Part shown: positions 4,038 through 55,228 of the stretch, piece by piece | How positions within the stretch are numbered: position 1 is the first letter of the stretch | Layout of the letters: each line of letters begins with the position of its first letter | Origin: Nitrososphaeria archaeon | Lineage (GTDB): Archaea > Thermoproteota > Nitrososphaeria > JACIWG01 | NCBI GenBank assembly: GCA_026413865.1 | Contig: JAOAKB010000003.1 | Location: 32,480-96,479 of the forward strand | DNA: 64,000 nt | Direction of reading: 5' to 3' | The notes under the pieces: generated by a model | Database searches by the model: none | The model's input: the letters and a program-made list of their open reading frames with translations, nothing else | What the model was told of the DNA's origin: nothing | Made by a program: the position numbers and the translations under genes

Positions 4038-5200
4038 AATTCTAATCTCTCTTTTATTTCATTATAGAGTTGTTCAGCTGGAATATTTAATAAGCTAATT
4101 AAAGTTGTTCTTCCCCTAGGTTCTGTACTTGTTACTGTTGCACTTATAATCTCTTTTTGACTTAAATTTTTTATTTTTAACCAAAACTGGGTATGTTTTA
4201 AAGCCTCTTTCCCAAATTTTTTACACATATTCTCATATTCTTGTTCTAAAATCTTTAGAGTAACATAACTATCTAATTGTTCTTTTAAGAGTTTAGTTAA
4301 TGCTAACAAAATTATTTTCTCATGGATATCTAAATAATTTAATTCTTCTTTTCTTATCTGAGGAGGTAATTGTAGTCTTGCTTCTCTAACATGTTCTGGT
4401 CTAACTTTTCTTTCCCCTCTGAATTCTGCAATTCTTCCTGAAAGTTGGAGGAGTTCTATAGCATATCTTGCATCTCCATATTTTGATGCAAGCTTAGAAA
4501 TTAATTCTATAGTTTCATTTTCTACTGTGTCTTCTTCAAAGGCTATTATAACACGGTCATAAACTATATCCTTAAGTTGTGATTCATTGTATGATTCAAG
4601 TTTAATTATATTCTTTTGAATGGAACTTAATATACTTTGGTCTGCTTTATCTAAATAAGAAAAAGATTTACTCACAATAATTGAAGATAGTATCTGATTT
4701 TCTGTTCCCATTTCTCTAATTCTTGTTATTATATATAATGGTTCTATTCCCTCATGAGAAATAAGGGCGTCGAATTCGTCAAAAACTGCTATCACATGTA
4801 CTTTTTCTTCATTTAATTTTAATATAAAATATTGTACAATTTCGTCTAAAGAGAATCCTCTAGTTGGGAACGAGTGGCCTATAGTAGAAAGAATACTATT
4901 TAATATACTTCCAAACACCTTATTAACTCTACAATTTGTGTAAAAGGTCTTTAATCTTATATCATAGAAACTATATTGTTCAGTCACATGTTGAAGAAAT
5001 TTTTTAGAAATAAGAGTTTTTCCACTTCCTACTGCTCCTACTATAAAGACTTGTTGACTATTCCTTTTAGGATCTTGCAGTACTGTCTTAAAATATCTTC
5101 TTAATTCATTTAATTCCCTCTCTCTATGTGGTATTCTTTTAGGAATATACTCTGGAGAAAGTTTATTTTCATCTTTAAATATTCGATATTCTTCTATCAT
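4034..5200 (-). CDS. orc1: Orc1/Cdc6 replication initiator (AAA+ ATPase with C-terminal winged helix)
   Basis: Walker A GAVGSGKT, Walker B VIAVFDEFD, typical 388 aa Orc1/Cdc6 layout. Confidence 0.85.
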   Translation of the reverse strand: MIEEYRIFKDENKLSPEYIPKRIPHRERELNELRRYFKTVLQDPKRNSQQVFIVGAVGSGKTLISKKFLQHVTEQYSFYDIRLKTFYTNCRVNKVFGSILNSILSTIGHSFPTRGFSLDEIVQYFILKLNEEKVHVIAVFDEFDALISHEGIEPLYIITRIREMGTENQILSSIIVSKSFSYLDKADQSILSSIQKNIIKLESYNESQLKDIVYDRVIIAFEEDTVENETIELISKLASKYGDARYAIELLQLSGRIAEFRGERKVRPEHVREARLQLPPQIRKEELNYLDIHEKIILLALTKLLKEQLDSYVTLKILEQEYENMCKKFGKEALKHTQFWLKIKNLSQKEIISATVTSTEPRGRTTLISLLNIPAEQLYNEIKERLEL

Positions 5201-5412
5201 CTTTGCATAAAGATAATTTAAACAATTATTTAACTATAACTTTAGTTTTGTTGTATAAAAAATAGAGAGAGGTAGGTGAAAATAATTTTTTGGGCTCTGA
5301 ACTCAAGATCTCTCTCATAAGCTTCGAACCCCCTTTTCTTCATCGCCCAACAAAATCTATTTAAAAAACTAATTTATAGCCCTTATGTTAAAAATAATAT
5401 CCTGGGGATAAT

Positions 5413-5832
5413 ATGGTGGAAATTAATCTAACAGTACACCTTAATAAGGTAAGGACCTTTTTGATAAATAGTACTTGTCGTTCTTTTATGCCAAAAAGCT
5501 ACATTCGAAACCCTGATATATTTCCAGAAAAAGAAGAAGGTCCAGGTGCAATATATATAGAAGCAGTTGATAAAGTAACTCTTACAAAAATGTATGGTAT
5601 AACATTTGTTAATGCAAAAGATGTACTTGGAATAATATATGTGTCTAAAAGTGGTAATACAAGATTAAAATGGCGCCAAATTAGTGGAAAAATAGGAAAA
5701 TTAACTGGCGTTGCTTCAGCAAATTCGATTGCAAATTTAATAGATTCGGGCATATTAACTAAAGAGCAAATAGAAAGTATGCTCACTAAAGAGGGGGGAA
5801 CTTCCTCCCCCGAATTTCAGCAGGCAAGTTAG
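5413..5832 (+). CDS. hypothetical protein (start uncertain, possibly Met27 at 5491)
   Basis: ORF only; no recognisable motif. 3' end overlaps the convergent MBL gene by about 47 nt. Confidence 0.25.
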   Translation: MVEINLTVHLNKVRTFLINSTCRSFMPKSYIRNPDIFPEKEEGPGAIYIEAVDKVTLTKMYGITFVNAKDVLGIIYVSKSGNTRLKWRQISGKIGKLTGVASANSIANLIDSGILTKEQIESMLTKEGGTSSPEFQQAS

Positions 5833-7443: not shown

Positions 7444-8184
7444 CTACTGTTGTATAATCTTATCTTTCAATTTTTCTATAGCGTACGATATTTTTGTGTT
7501 AATAATATTTTCTTTTCTTTCATCGCAAACCTCTTTTATTCTGTTAATCATTTTTTCAATTTGAATATCTGACCTATACCATTTAATTATGTCTGATACT
7601 TTTTTGGCTGCTTTTGTAACATTATATCCAACATTATATGAGTTTAAAATTGCCTCTTTATTATCAAGTATGTTTGTTTTGCTATGATGGTAAGCTAGTG
7701 CCCAAGGTGGAATATGTACTCCCATGCTATTAAATGTGACCATCAAGTAGGATATTGCTGTTATAGATCCAGAATCGTTTCCGACGGCTAAAAAACCTGC
7801 AACTTTTCCATCTAAGAGACTTCTTCCGACATGAATGATCATGTTTTCCATACTTGTTAATCTGTCAATTAAATTCTTTAATTGCCCACTAACCATATAC
7901 CAATATAATGGTGTTGCTATGATTAATCCTTGGGCGCTAACAATTTTTTCTCCTAGTTTGTTAAAGTCATCGTCCTTAATTAAGCAAGGGAATTTACAAT
8001 CTTTTGGATTACTGGATACACATCCAAGGCATGGTTTAATATCATATTGATAGAGATGTAAAATCTCTGGTTCTCCTTTTGCATCTAAAACGCCATAATT
8101 TGCGGCTAATAACATTTTTTGGGACCAACCACTATTTCTTGGTGAAGCATTTATTAACAATATTTTGGTTTTCATACCAATCAC
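7444..8184 (-). CDS. iron-sulfur flavoprotein / NADPH-dependent FMN reductase-like (flavodoxin fold)
   Basis: N-terminal LLINASPRNSG-type flavodoxin-like start. Compact Cys motif CLGCVSSNPKDCKFPC typical of Isf-family flavoproteins. Confidence 0.55.
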   Translation of the reverse strand: MIGMKTKILLINASPRNSGWSQKMLLAANYGVLDAKGEPEILHLYQYDIKPCLGCVSSNPKDCKFPCLIKDDDFNKLGEKIVSAQGLIIATPLYWYMVSGQLKNLIDRLTSMENMIIHVGRSLLDGKVAGFLAVGNDSGSITAISYLMVTFNSMGVHIPPWALAYHHSKTNILDNKEAILNSYNVGYNVTKAAKKVSDIIKWYRSDIQIEKMINRIKEVCDERKENIINTKISYAIEKLKDKIIQQ

Positions 8185-8359
8185 CTAGACAGTTTGTAAG
8201 TCTAGGTAGTTGGTTAGCCCTACATACTTCCACCTTAAATTATAAATTTTTTTCCTTAAAATATTTCTTGTCCTCCTTTATTAATAAGATAAAAATTATC
8301 TATTTAACGAATTTCTTTTATACTCCGCCTATTTTACCCCTATCTGGAGTGAGCAAAAA

Positions 8360-8794
8360 TTGGGAATGGTTGACATTTCTAAAAAACCAGTGATTGAAAG
8401 GGAAGCCTTAGCTGAAGGCACTATTTTCCTAAAGCCTGAAACAATAAAGTTAATAAAAGAAAATAAAGTTGAAAAAGGTGATGTTTTGCAAATTTCCTCA
8501 GTATGTGCTTTAAATGCGGTTAAAAAAACTCCTGAACTTGTACCATTCTGTCATCCAATACCTATAGAAAGTGTTAAACCTGAATTTGAAATTGGTGACG
8601 AATATATAAAAGTACGTGTTAAAGTTAAGTCTACTTCAAAAACAGGTGTTGAAATGGAAGCTATTTCCGGTGTTTTAAATGCGCTGTTAAACATATGGGA
8701 TTTAGTGAAAAAATATGAGAAAGATTCTTCTGGAAATTATCCATTTACAAGAATCGAGGGTGTAAGAGTTATAAGTAAGGTGAAATATGAATGA
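8360..8794 (+). CDS. moaC: cyclic pyranopterin monophosphate synthase accessory protein MoaC
   Basis: 144 aa. MoaC-like sequence (DISKKPV...EAISGVLNALLNIWDL). First gene of a moaC-moaB-moaA run. Confidence 0.75.
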   Translation: MGMVDISKKPVIEREALAEGTIFLKPETIKLIKENKVEKGDVLQISSVCALNAVKKTPELVPFCHPIPIESVKPEFEIGDEYIKVRVKVKSTSKTGVEMEAISGVLNALLNIWDLVKKYEKDSSGNYPFTRIEGVRVISKVKYE

Positions 8795-50779: not shown

Positions 50780-52027
50780 TTGGTGGATTGTTGCTTTGTG
50801 GTAAATATTAATTATAGCACCCTGCTTATCGAATCTCTAATTTCGTCTATAACCGATTTAGAAAGGTCTTCAAAAACTGTTTTAGATGCTTTGCTTAAAA
50901 TTACTGAAAGCGAAATTGGGTTTGTTGGCATAATAGAACCTGGAACGAAAGTGCTTGTTATTAAATCCTTTAAAAATGTAGGCAAACATTTTATGAAAGA
51001 GGAAAAAGTCATATATCCTGACGAAAATGATCGCTATCCTGCACCGTTTGGATATGCAATTAATGAAAGAATAGCTTTTTATATAAATGATCTTAAAGCT
51101 TATCCAGTATTAAAGAATATTTTAGAAGATTATTTTCTAGTAGAACGTTTTATTGTCGTTCCAGTTATGTTAAACGATAAAGTTTTAGGCTTGATTGTCT
51201 TAGCAAATTCTAAAAAAGACTATACAAACAATGATTTAGAGCAAGTAAAAAAGATTGGAAAATATTATGCTATAGCATTAGAACGCTACTGGCTTGAAAA
51301 AGAAATTAAAAAATATACACAAGATTTAGAAAGGATTGTTGAAGAAAAGGTTAAAGAATTGCATGAAAGGGAAACACTTGCAGCCATAGGACAAATGACC
51401 CTAATGGTCGCGCATGATTTAAGAAATCCGTTACAAGTAATCTCAAACTACAGCTTCCTACTAGATAATACGGCAAAAAGTAATCCTTGTAAAATTAGTG
51501 AAAGGGTAAGAAAATATGTTCAAGTAATTGAGAAAAACATATTATATATTGATAGGATTGCTAAAGACCTACAATATTTAGGTAAGCGTGAAGCGAAACT
51601 TGAGCCAGTAAACCTACAAGCTATAGTAGGAGAAACTCTTAAGCAGTTTCCTAAATCAGAAAACATAAAAATTATAAAAGACGTTGACAATATCAGAACA
51701 CAACTTGATCCACTTCTAATAGTGAAGGCATTATCTAATATTATATTGAACGCTATACAGGCTATGCCAAAAGGTGGTACATTAATGATCAAGGCAAAAC
51801 AAAAAAATAGCATAATAGAATTTACTGTTACAGACACGGGCGTCGGCATGAGTGATGAAGTAAAAAGAAACTTATTCAAACCATTCTATACAACAAAATC
51901 TAAAGGCATGGGCTTAGGCCTAGCATTAGTAAAACATGTGGTAGACTTACATCATGGAACAATTGAAGTGGAAAGCGAACCAAACAAAGGAACAAAAATA
52001 ACAATAAAAATACCAAGCATAAAATAG
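50780..52027 (+). CDS. GAF-domain sensor histidine kinase
   Basis: N-terminal GAF-like region, HisKA H-box MVAHDLRNPL, HATPase_c N/G boxes (NAIQAM, DTGVGM, GMGLGLAL). No response regulator seen nearby. Confidence 0.7.
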   Translation: MVDCCFVVNINYSTLLIESLISSITDLERSSKTVLDALLKITESEIGFVGIIEPGTKVLVIKSFKNVGKHFMKEEKVIYPDENDRYPAPFGYAINERIAFYINDLKAYPVLKNILEDYFLVERFIVVPVMLNDKVLGLIVLANSKKDYTNNDLEQVKKIGKYYAIALERYWLEKEIKKYTQDLERIVEEKVKELHERETLAAIGQMTLMVAHDLRNPLQVISNYSFLLDNTAKSNPCKISERVRKYVQVIEKNILYIDRIAKDLQYLGKREAKLEPVNLQAIVGETLKQFPKSENIKIIKDVDNIRTQLDPLLIVKALSNIILNAIQAMPKGGTLMIKAKQKNSIIEFTVTDTGVGMSDEVKRNLFKPFYTTKSKGMGLGLALVKHVVDLHHGTIEVESEPNKGTKITIKIPSIK

Positions 52028-53250: not shown

Positions 53251-53345
53251 TGGGCCCGGTGGGATTTGAACCCACGGCTGACCGGTTTCTCAAGATCACT
53301 TTACTTTATGAGCCGGTCACTCTGACCTAGCTGAGTTACGGGCCC
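53251..53345 (-). tRNA. elongator tRNA-Met(CAT) with a 20-nt intron at the canonical 37/38 position
   Basis: Reverse complement: acceptor GGGCCCG/CGGGCCC, D-stem ACTC/GAGT, anticodon stem ACCGG/CCGGT, loop CTCATA then a 20-nt insert (plus-strand coordinates 53287..53306) then A, T-arm GTGGG-TTCAAAT-CCCAC, discriminator A. Confidence 0.7.
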
Positions 53346-54194: not shown

Positions 54195-54316
54195 ATTTCC
54201 ATCATTGCAGCATTAACAAATCTAATATAAATTATTTTCAAAAATCTATAAATATACTCTTATTTTATAAGTTTTTTCATTAAAGATTTTAAACCATTAT
54301 CACCAATCTCTAGTAG

Positions 54317-55228
54317 ATGAGCAATAAACATATTATCGCACTCCTTATCATAGTCTCAACATTCTGCTTAGGTATAAATAGTGTACAAGCCCTTTCTCCC
54401 TCACAAGTTAAGGCTGGTGTTTGGGTTATTAGTATTGATAAGGTTGACCTTGCAGCTGGAACATTTTCTGCAGACTTCTACCTCTGGTTCCATTATACAG
54501 ATGTCCCCCCAAATTTTGAATTCATAAATGGTGTACCATCTAAAATTGAAAAGACTGTTGAAAGAGAAGGGTATGTAGAATATAGGGTTAAGGCAACATT
54601 TGTTCAACAGTATAATTTTAAATCTTTTCCCTTTGACGTACAAAATCTTAATATAATTATTGAAGACAAGTCTCTTAACATATCAAAGTTAGTCTTTTCG
54701 CCTGATTTTGAACAAAGTGGTTTGGATCCTCAAGCTTATGTTGTTGGATGGCAATTCAAGGATTTTACATCAGAGAGTATTGTTCACGAATATCCTGGAG
54801 AAAACTATTCACGTATAATATTCACAATATCTATACAACGTGAAACATTTCCGGTTTTCATGAAAAATTTTGTTCCAATAACATTAATAACATTAATTAG
54901 TCTCCTCTCATTTGCTGTAAGCATACAAAACTATTCTCAAAGAATTTCCATAGGTATAACAACACTATTTTCTGCTGTAGCCTACCATCTAGCCACACTT
55001 AGCACCCTGCCCCCTCTCTCCTATCTTACATTATTTGATCGAATCATGTTAGCAATATACTCACTTTTCTTATTTAATATTGGTGTTAGTGTACAAGGTA
55101 TGCGTTTGGTTGACAGAAAACAGGTTGAACGTGCAATAGTGTTTGAGGATAGGATGCAAAAACTACTTCCACTTGTTATAATAGTGCTTCTAATATTCTT
55201 CACTATAGTAATTGAACCATTCACATAA
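54317..55228 (+). CDS. pentameric ligand-gated ion channel (Cys-loop receptor superfamily, prokaryotic Pro-loop type) homologue
   Basis: Signal peptide. About 180-aa beta-rich extracellular domain containing the family-defining FPFDVQN (FPFDxQ) loop motif. Pre-M1 R...FP. Four TM helices M1-M4, with M3 LTLFDRIMLAIYSLFLFN. 303 aa, GLIC/ELIC-like size. Confidence 0.7.
   Translation: MSNKHIIALLIIVSTFCLGINSVQALSPSQVKAGVWVISIDKVDLAAGTFSADFYLWFHYTDVPPNFEFINGVPSKIEKTVEREGYVEYRVKATFVQQYNFKSFPFDVQNLNIIIEDKSLNISKLVFSPDFEQSGLDPQAYVVGWQFKDFTSESIVHEYPGENYSRIIFTISIQRETFPVFMKNFVPITLITLISLLSFAVSIQNYSQRISIGITTLFSAVAYHLATLSTLPPLSYLTLFDRIMLAIYSLFLFNIGVSVQGMRLVDRKQVERAIVFEDRMQKLLPLVIIVLLIFFTIVIEPFT

Follow-up and report, generated by a model that had tools for sequence, protein, structure and literature searches.

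A compact, Cys-less pentameric ligand-gated ion channel subunit predicted in a Nitrososphaeria archaeon

Identification of the gene and its fold

[quoted passage not shown] It is a complete Pro-loop receptor (pLGIC) subunit gene, an ATG-to-stop open reading frame (ORF) of 303 codons plus the stop; the two ORFs of 80 and 67 amino acids that overlap it on the minus strand are without support. It is also the sole match of a hidden Markov model (HMM) of its family among the 91 six-frame ORFs of at least 100 amino acids in the window, and this comparison uncovered no second pLGIC paralogue among the ORFs of that size across the 64 kb. The identical protein in NCBI is named "hypothetical protein N3F64_01850 [Nitrososphaeria archaeon]".

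The assignment rests on concordant profile and structural comparisons. A profile constructed from 54 family sequences (alignment A1; the residue frequencies given below refer to 53 relatives) matches GLIC, the proton-gated pLGIC of Gloeobacter violaceus (PDB 3EAM/4HFI), with E ~1e-27, profile positions 31-301 falling on GLIC residues 13-311. Likewise, a single-sequence phmmer search of the PDB sequences recovers GLIC with E ~1e-14, the best-scoring entry being a chimera (4x5t; E 1.6e-19, 74.2 bits versus ~59 for GLIC) that joins the extracellular domain (ECD) of GLIC to the transmembrane domain (TMD) of the glycine receptor (GlyR) alpha1. Further, AlphaFold2 supplied with the family alignment predicts a single chain of nine beta strands and four helices with a mean predicted local distance difference test score (pLDDT) of 88.7 and a predicted template modeling score (pTM) of 0.75. 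When this model was compared to the PDB with Foldseek, all of the top 50 matches were pLGICs, with GLIC at rank 1 (TM-score 0.78, root-mean-square deviation ~3 Å, E 3e-22), followed by GABA-A beta3. The Pfam ligand-binding domain model Neur_chan_LBD (PF02931) is matched by residues 75-177 with 26.9 bits against a cut-off of 26 (E 4e-6), a marginal match that spans only the C-terminal half of the model. The E values of the Pfam, phmmer, family-profile and Foldseek comparisons together rule out a chance match.

Several observations weigh against this interpretation. The Pfam membrane-domain model Neur_chan_memb (PF02932) reaches only 15.3 bits on residues 186-250, under its gathering score of 28.1; thus, of the two Pfam models by which the first-pass annotation of this DNA had proposed to check its prediction, the first scores narrowly above its gathering score and the second below. 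The matches to the NCBIfam models TIGR00860 (LIC; E 8e-16, 57.9 bits versus a curated cut-off of 280.2) and NF033918 (LGIC_1; E 5e-14, 52.3 bits versus a curated cut-off of 500) lie far under the curated cut-offs and, hence, no named subfamily can claim the protein as an equivalog; judging from the sequence, it is homologous to both of these and a member of neither. Moreover, we infer pentamer formation, conduction and gating alike by homology; the pocket residues described below could be kept for subunit packing rather than ligand binding; the gene neighborhoods of family members give no hint of a ligand; and orthologues are apparently pseudogenised in two metagenome-assembled genomes (MAGs), which implies that the function is not essential. 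As for the Pfam scores, these are made up for by the match of the family profile to GLIC.

Domain architecture and signature residues

The protein opens with a predicted Sec-type signal peptide (residues 1-25; 54317..54391), in which K4 precedes hydrophobic residues at 6-20 and a ...VQA/LS junction, the predicted cleavage being after VQA; the model has a helix here at 4-17 and then, at 19-24, a linker of low confidence (pLDDT <50). It is followed by a compact extracellular beta-sandwich (residues 26-176; 54392..54844), which is delineated by family conservation and by strands in the AlphaFold2 model at residues 29-44, 49-59, 67-70, 72-83, 86-96, 108-117, 125-129, 145-159 and 162-174. The loop between beta6 and beta7 bears the Pro-loop signature F104-P105-F106-D107 (54626..54637), in which P105 is retained by all 53 relatives, F104 by 52 and D107 by 51. 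The pre-M1 R175 (54839..54841), an Arg in 52 of the 53 relatives, aligns with R192 of GLIC and is the expected salt-bridge partner of D107. Further, W145 in beta9 and P232 between M2 and M3 are invariant (53/53), and P187 in M1 is nearly so. According to Table 1 of PMC4795631, which gives the most conserved residues across 561 pLGICs, the Pro-loop Pro is the only absolutely conserved one; all seven residues of that table (F104, P105, D107, W145, R175, P187 and P232) are kept here, at 96-100% in the relatives.

The TMD comprises four helices in the AlphaFold2 model: M1 (residues 177-200; 54845..54916) with the kink proline P187, an assignment that the alignment shares; the pore-lining M2 (residues 206-228; 54932..55000), numbered by its alignment with M2 of GLIC; M3 (residues 239-266; 55031..55114); and M4 (residues 270-298; 55124..55210). 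M2 and M3 are joined by a coupling loop containing the invariant P232 (55001..55030), whereas the M3-M4 turn is just three residues long, implying that an intracellular domain is absent. There are six Lys and Arg residues in the M3-M4 region (262-284) and none in the M2-M3 loop, a distribution consistent with an N-out topology and a cytoplasmic M3-M4 region. C17, the sole Cys of the protein, belongs to the signal peptide, and the metazoan-type Cys pair around the beta6-beta7 loop is absent; the lack of such a flanking pair identifies a Cys-less Pro-loop receptor, as are all prokaryotic members.

Thus, the architecture of the GLIC/ELIC type that the first-pass annotation had read from the ORF is borne out by the agreement of profiles, predicted fold, signature residues and topology, and this extends to its components, namely the signal peptide, the beta-rich ECD, the FPFDVQN loop (residues 104-110), the pre-M1 Arg, exactly four transmembrane helices and a characteristic M3 stretch, LTLFDRIMLAIYSLF (residues 237-251, inside M3). 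The structure prediction that it had called for yields the N-terminal beta-sandwich with four transmembrane helices, superposing on GLIC. Its label of Cys-loop superfamily holds as regards membership in the superfamily but not as regards the Cys-loop disulfide.

Pore, candidate agonist pocket and proposed mode of action

The M2 helix presents S207 at -2', Q208 at -1', R209 at 0', S211 at 2', T215 at 6', F218 at 9', A222 at 13', H224 at 15' and L225 at 16'. Its lining is nearly invariant across the relatives (-2' S/G, 2' S/G, 6' T/S, 13' A, 16' L/I and 20' S), with Gln at -1' and Arg at 0' each in 52 of 53 and His at 15' in every one. The inner-mouth motif, S207-Q208-R209 in this protein, is G-Q-R in most family members, most of which also have a Lys at -5'. 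The most common single motifs among neighboring representatives are ones such as DPR and DAR, with an acidic -2' residue as in GLIC; the family alignment reveals no acidic ring at either mouth of M2. At 9' the Nitrososphaeria subgroup has Phe, whose place is taken by Met in most relatives from Hadarchaeales, Phe being found at this position in 13% of the pLGIC superfamily (PMC4795631).

The ECD is reduced relative to that of GLIC: the beta2-beta3 linker, measured from the beta2 Trp to the loop-A Pro, is 22 residues shorter (8 versus 30), and a few residues around beta4 are also missing, the remainder aligning one to one. The distance from G34 to P105 is 71 residues, near the minimum, as against a median of 79 in the 150 nearest representatives and 99 in GLIC. 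The short ECD was considered as a truncation unique to this protein and this was rejected, a compact ECD being common to those 150 representatives. Within this domain, family-invariant residues occur in the loops that classically bind agonists: E68 and F69 in loop A; E116, D117 and K118 in loop B; H157, Y159, E162 and Y164 (or F) in loop C; D53, Y55 and W57 in loop D; and Y86, E88 and R90 in loop E. In the alignment to GLIC, R90 corresponds to R105, K118 to R133 and E68 to R77; R77 and R105 of GLIC are residues that we take to line its orthosteric carboxylate-binding site. This array of invariant charged and aromatic residues suggests that a small charged ligand, or alternatively a pH-sensitive network, is conserved in the family. 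From the chemistry of the pocket, our guess is that the channel most likely responds to pH or to an organic compound that is small and charged, for instance an amine or a carboxylate/amino acid.

Carrying over what is established for GLIC, ELIC and the animal receptors, we advance the following plausible mode of action. Five copies would come together with their M2 helices lining the pore. A stimulus from outside the cell would then act at or below the subunit-interface pocket lined by E68 of loop A and the residues of loops B, C and E, and the ensuing movement would run through the interface formed by the Pro-loop Asp, the pre-M1 Arg and the M2-M3 Pro. This would open a hydrophobic gate formed by F218 at 9', a position held by Met in the relatives from Hadarchaeales, and by L225 at 16'.

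A more specific version of this scheme is a GLIC-like proton-gated, cation-selective channel, in which acidification protonates extracellular carboxylates and a cation pore opens as a result. It would accord with the placement of GLIC among the best sequence matches and as the best structure match, with the two invariant histidines H157 and H224, with an ECD rich in titratable residues (net charge -7 per subunit, family median -13) and, by inference, with the variable pH faced by hot-spring hosts. However, activation of GLIC is altered at eight residues, namely E26, D32, E35 (the key proton sensor), D122, E222, H235, E243 and H277 (PMC5760087), and of these only the universal Pro-loop Asp is kept (D122 = D107), the other seven aligning in the same order to S39, L45, G48, S207, A220, L228 and M262; the G48 position, corresponding to E35, is Gln in most of the family. 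Moreover, the selectivity-filter Glu of GLIC at -2' is replaced by Ser/Gly and the overall identity to GLIC is only ~20%. Hence, the GLIC-type proton mechanism is not supported by this pattern of loss and we consider it quite unlikely.

The signals bearing on charge selectivity are in conflict: the neutral to basic inner mouth and the GlyR-like turns of M2 suggest an anionic or weakly selective pore, whereas the acidic ECD suggests a cationic one. On balance, we slightly favor a pore that is permeable to cations and weakly selective. The opposing proposal, an anion-selective channel with a pore like those of the glycine and GABA receptors, draws on the higher score of the chimera with the GlyR alpha1 TMD relative to GLIC, on the alignment of R-I-S-I-G-I-T-T-L in M2 with R-V-G-L-G-I-T-T-V of GlyR, and on an M2 devoid of acidic residues, with its conserved 0' Arg and frequent -5' Lys; further, the classic conversion of alpha7 and 5-HT3A from cation to anion channels includes removal of the -1' Glu (PMC6800317). 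Nevertheless, the -2' Pro/-1' Ala motif of the anionic receptors is absent, with S/G-Q-R in its place, and the strongly electronegative ECD should favor cations in the vestibule; moreover, the inner-mouth motif is insufficient to predict selectivity in prokaryotic pLGICs (PMC4795631). We therefore view anion selectivity as a minority prospect, rather unlikely but not negligible.

It is also conceivable, as a tentative proposal on which we would put no great weight, that the Nitrososphaeria/Hadarchaeales family constitutes a functionally distinct, thermostable and minimal pLGIC with selectivity or gating possibly unlike GLIC, ELIC, sTeLIC and DeCLIC. The very short ECD, the -1' Gln ring, the Phe/Met gate at 9' and the invariant 15' His may point in this direction. 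If so, its pore might, for example, be non-selective or permeable to anions, or its gating might depend on a solute relevant to hot springs.

Phyletic distribution and evolution

Family-specific peptide patterns located the close family in 18 species representatives of GTDB, most of them Nitrososphaeria and Hadarchaeales from hot springs: five are Nitrososphaeria, about 11 Hadarchaeales/Hadarchaeum, one belongs to the Methanobacteriota and one is a Hodarchaeaceae (Asgard) MAG. An exhaustive HMM search over 1.84 billion cluster representatives retrieved 763 proteins at E ≤ 1e-30, a number that grows to 4,883 at E ≤ 1e-10 and to 12,149 at E ≤ 1e-3, the scores being continuous with no gap after the family. 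We had considered the family to be isolated on account of a jump in E from 1e-54 to 3e-7 in a word-indexed search; this was rejected as a sensitivity artefact because the exhaustive search shows a continuum. Nitrosocaldus, Nitrososphaerota/Thaumarchaeota and Bathyarchaeota provide the nearest named outgroups, with a bacterium of the Myxococcales coming next.

The Asgard copy is from Candidatus Hodarchaeaceae MAG Yes49-31 (JASEGJ010000001.1, a 142-kb contig; positions 4989..5763 of our extracted locus L024); it is a family member of 54-59% identity that lacks the N-terminal part up to about residue 43 and is broken between two reading frames. In Lokiarchaeota, no pLGIC was detected by Jaiteh et al. 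2016 (PMC4795631). A JGI metagenome homologue of 368 amino acids (P0010) is extended by 65 residues at its N terminus and is called "stress response protein SCP2" in its source; the extension and the name are probably due to a mis-called start and a misannotation, respectively.

Among orthologues from close relatives, the channel in the Nitrososphaeria loci L007 and L008 is 88-89% identical to the window copy, while its neighbors are 94-96% identical. Partitioned by region, the identity of the close orthologues is 40-52% in the signal peptide, 88-91% in the ECD and 94-98% in the TMD (88-98% over the mature protein). Moreover, the binding-loop residues are invariant even though the family is only 40-50% identical overall. 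Judged by this TMD identity and these invariant loops, the gene is under purifying selection. In Nitrososphaeria MAG-19 (JACIWG010000008.1; locus L011, 1400..2350) the orthologue is interrupted twice by frameshifts and once by an in-frame stop, the latter at the codon that corresponds to Y99, with the flanking HpcH and isocitrate dehydrogenase (IDH) genes intact at 90-94% identity; it is either a pseudogene or an assembly error. This fits the non-essential, often-lost character ascribed in the literature to the pLGICs of unicellular organisms.

These damaged copies raise the question of whether the gene is a decaying or functionless relic, with the fold kept and the working channel lost, a notion in line with the frequent loss of pLGICs reported from unicellular lineages and with the faster divergence of the protein relative to its neighbors. 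However, the ORF is intact in the window and in ~50 relatives, the coupling residues and pore lining are nearly invariant, the divergence falls mostly in the signal peptide, leaving the TMD highly conserved, and a promoter-like element is preserved (see below). Accordingly, we regard the relic scenario as very unlikely and retain that of a channel subunit.

Genomic context

The window is an ordinary archaeal chromosome segment whose housekeeping genes include those for MCM, aEF-2 and a helicase bearing the archaeal "domain 4", in keeping with the first-pass placement of the gene in a TACK archaeon, which the archaeal contig genes of this Nitrososphaeria MAG uphold. The GC content around the pLGIC gene is 0.34, which is typical of the window, and a GC scan of the window detected no compositional anomaly or island at the gene. 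It is flanked by a divergently transcribed HpcH/HpaI-type aldolase gene and, 5 bp away, by a convergent isocitrate/isopropylmalate dehydrogenase gene, with genes for an aldo/keto reductase, a SIMPL/DUF541 protein, an M14 peptidase and a GAF-histidine kinase further out. The order HpcH-pLGIC-IDH-SIMPL recurs in three other Nitrososphaeria MAGs (L007, L008 and L011).

This bears on a possible bacterial provenance, be it through mis-binning, chimeric assembly or very recent horizontal transfer. Beyond E ~1e-57 the relatives do include bacterial proteins, such as that from Myxococcales, and lateral transfer marks the phylogeny of pLGICs in the literature. In contrast, the gene order shared with three other MAGs, the tRNA with its probable intron, MCM and the archaeal-type helicase in the flanks, the matching GC content and the archaeal nearest outgroups all speak for a resident archaeal gene, making a bacterial origin extremely unlikely.

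We also considered whether the neighborhood might betray the ligand and rejected this: the synteny with HpcH, IDH, SIMPL and M14 is confined to very close Nitrososphaeria and looks vertical. More distant family members lie beside unrelated genes (P0007 next to UbiA/heliorhodopsin, P0030 next to MFS/radical SAM and P0043 next to glutamine synthetase/NUDIX), indicating that the pLGIC gene is monocistronic and lacks a conserved functional partner. A monocistronic, dispensable gene without conserved partners would suit an accessory role in environmental sensing or in osmotic/ionic responses. At the P0007 locus, from a Nitrososphaeria MAG (JAVZCQ010000001.1; L001), a heliorhodopsin gene (7778..8598), predicted as two adjacent ORFs of 214 and 58 amino acids, lies ~900 bp downstream of the pLGIC homologue; there is none near the window copy.

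In the divergent intergenic region (54195..54316) and its equivalents in L007, L008 and L011 we observed two conserved AT-rich blocks, AAAGATTTTAAA and AATATAAATTATTTT, the latter near the start of the HpcH gene; these are likely to be two divergent archaeal promoters. The AAAGATTTTAAA block (54282..54293, plus strand), centered ~27 nt before the pLGIC ATG, is kept in the orthologous regions of L007 and L008, and almost entirely in L011, although the surrounding sequence varies, and is a putative transcription factor B recognition element (BRE)/TATA element, likely that of a leaderless pLGIC mRNA.

Two other features lie upstream. A tRNA gene with the anticodon CAU (53251..53345, minus strand), ~1 kb from the pLGIC gene, scores 57 bits with Rfam and was missed by ARAGORN; a ~22-nt insertion adjoining its anticodon loop is probably an archaeal intron. 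At 50780..52027 (plus strand), ~2.3 kb upstream, there is a gene for a sensor histidine kinase of GAF-HisKA-HATPase make-up, in which no membrane segment is obvious. This kinase was not found by tblastn in the compared related loci, several of which end short of that position; consequently, nothing ties it to the channel.

Significance

pLGICs from Methanosarcina were reported by Tasneem et al. 2005, as relayed in PMC4795631, and ten further archaeal genera, including a robust Thaumarchaeota clade, were added in 2016 (PMC4795631). The first-pass statement that very few archaeal examples are known is thus outdated. According to the same work, no biological role is known for the prokaryotic pLGICs (PMC4795631). 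Our literature searches returned no functional or structural study of an archaeal pLGIC, the characterized ones that we found all being bacterial, and no mention of pLGICs from thermophilic archaea. Hence, the protein described here is a new member of a known channel family or, at the very most, represents a new subfamily associated with thermophiles. The existence of archaeal pLGIC genes, including those of the Nitrososphaeria lineage, was already established and current understanding is unchanged. In evolutionary terms, it belongs to the same family as the animal neurotransmitter receptors and would add an archaeal data point on the origin of the neurotransmitter-receptor channels. It is a candidate for the first characterized archaeal pLGIC: with ~278 residues in the mature form and a thermophilic source, it is probably thermostable and could serve as a robust structural and biophysical template, while the neutral -1' Gln at its pore mouth offers a natural test case for the rules linking sequence to charge selectivity.

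Comparison with known channels

The set of archaeal, including Thaumarchaeota, pLGICs of Jaiteh, Taly and Henin 2016 (PMC4795631) is a close precedent, its members being likewise Cys-less, sparsely distributed across archaeal genomes and subject to gene loss. The present family differs in its occurrence in Hadarchaeales and in thermophilic Nitrososphaeria MAGs that are not of the ammonia-oxidizer type, neither of which was sampled in that set. Neither the taxon names nor the motifs LISLL, AVAYH, YLWF, LTLFD and EYRV were found in the portion of its gapped supplementary alignment that was searched.

GLIC shares with our protein the common fold, the domain order, the minimal M3-M4 turn and the lack of an N-terminal helix, an extra domain and the Cys-loop disulfide, despite the low sequence identity. 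The coupling residues correspond throughout (F/Y-P-x-D; W160/W145, R192/R175, P204/P187 and P247/P232 in GLIC and here, respectively), loop C is of GLIC-like length, being two residues shorter here, and in the orthosteric region R105/R90 and R133/K118 are conserved. The pore, by contrast, diverges: in addition to the substitution of the -2' Glu and the Gln at -1', the 9' Ile of GLIC gives way to Phe/Met, and its 11' His is absent, with an invariant His at 15' instead.

Similar in size are two other bacterial homopentameric pLGICs, ELIC, the amine- and GABA-gated cation channel of Dickeya/Erwinia, and sTeLIC, which is gated by alkaline pH. ELIC has S-E-R at -2'/-1'/0' and V-A-Y at 12'-14', which would resemble the S-Q-R and V-A-Y found here, with the difference that its -1' residue is Glu as opposed to Gln. 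Among the animal receptors, GlyR alpha1 shares the first two turns of M2 (R-x-x-x-G-I-T-T) and contributes the TMD of the chimera that is the top PDB sequence, while GABA-A beta3 is the best structural match other than GLIC. In contrast to both of these, the archaeal protein has an acidic ECD and is without the Cys-loop disulfide, the -2' Pro/-1' Ala, the intracellular domain and the N-terminal helix.

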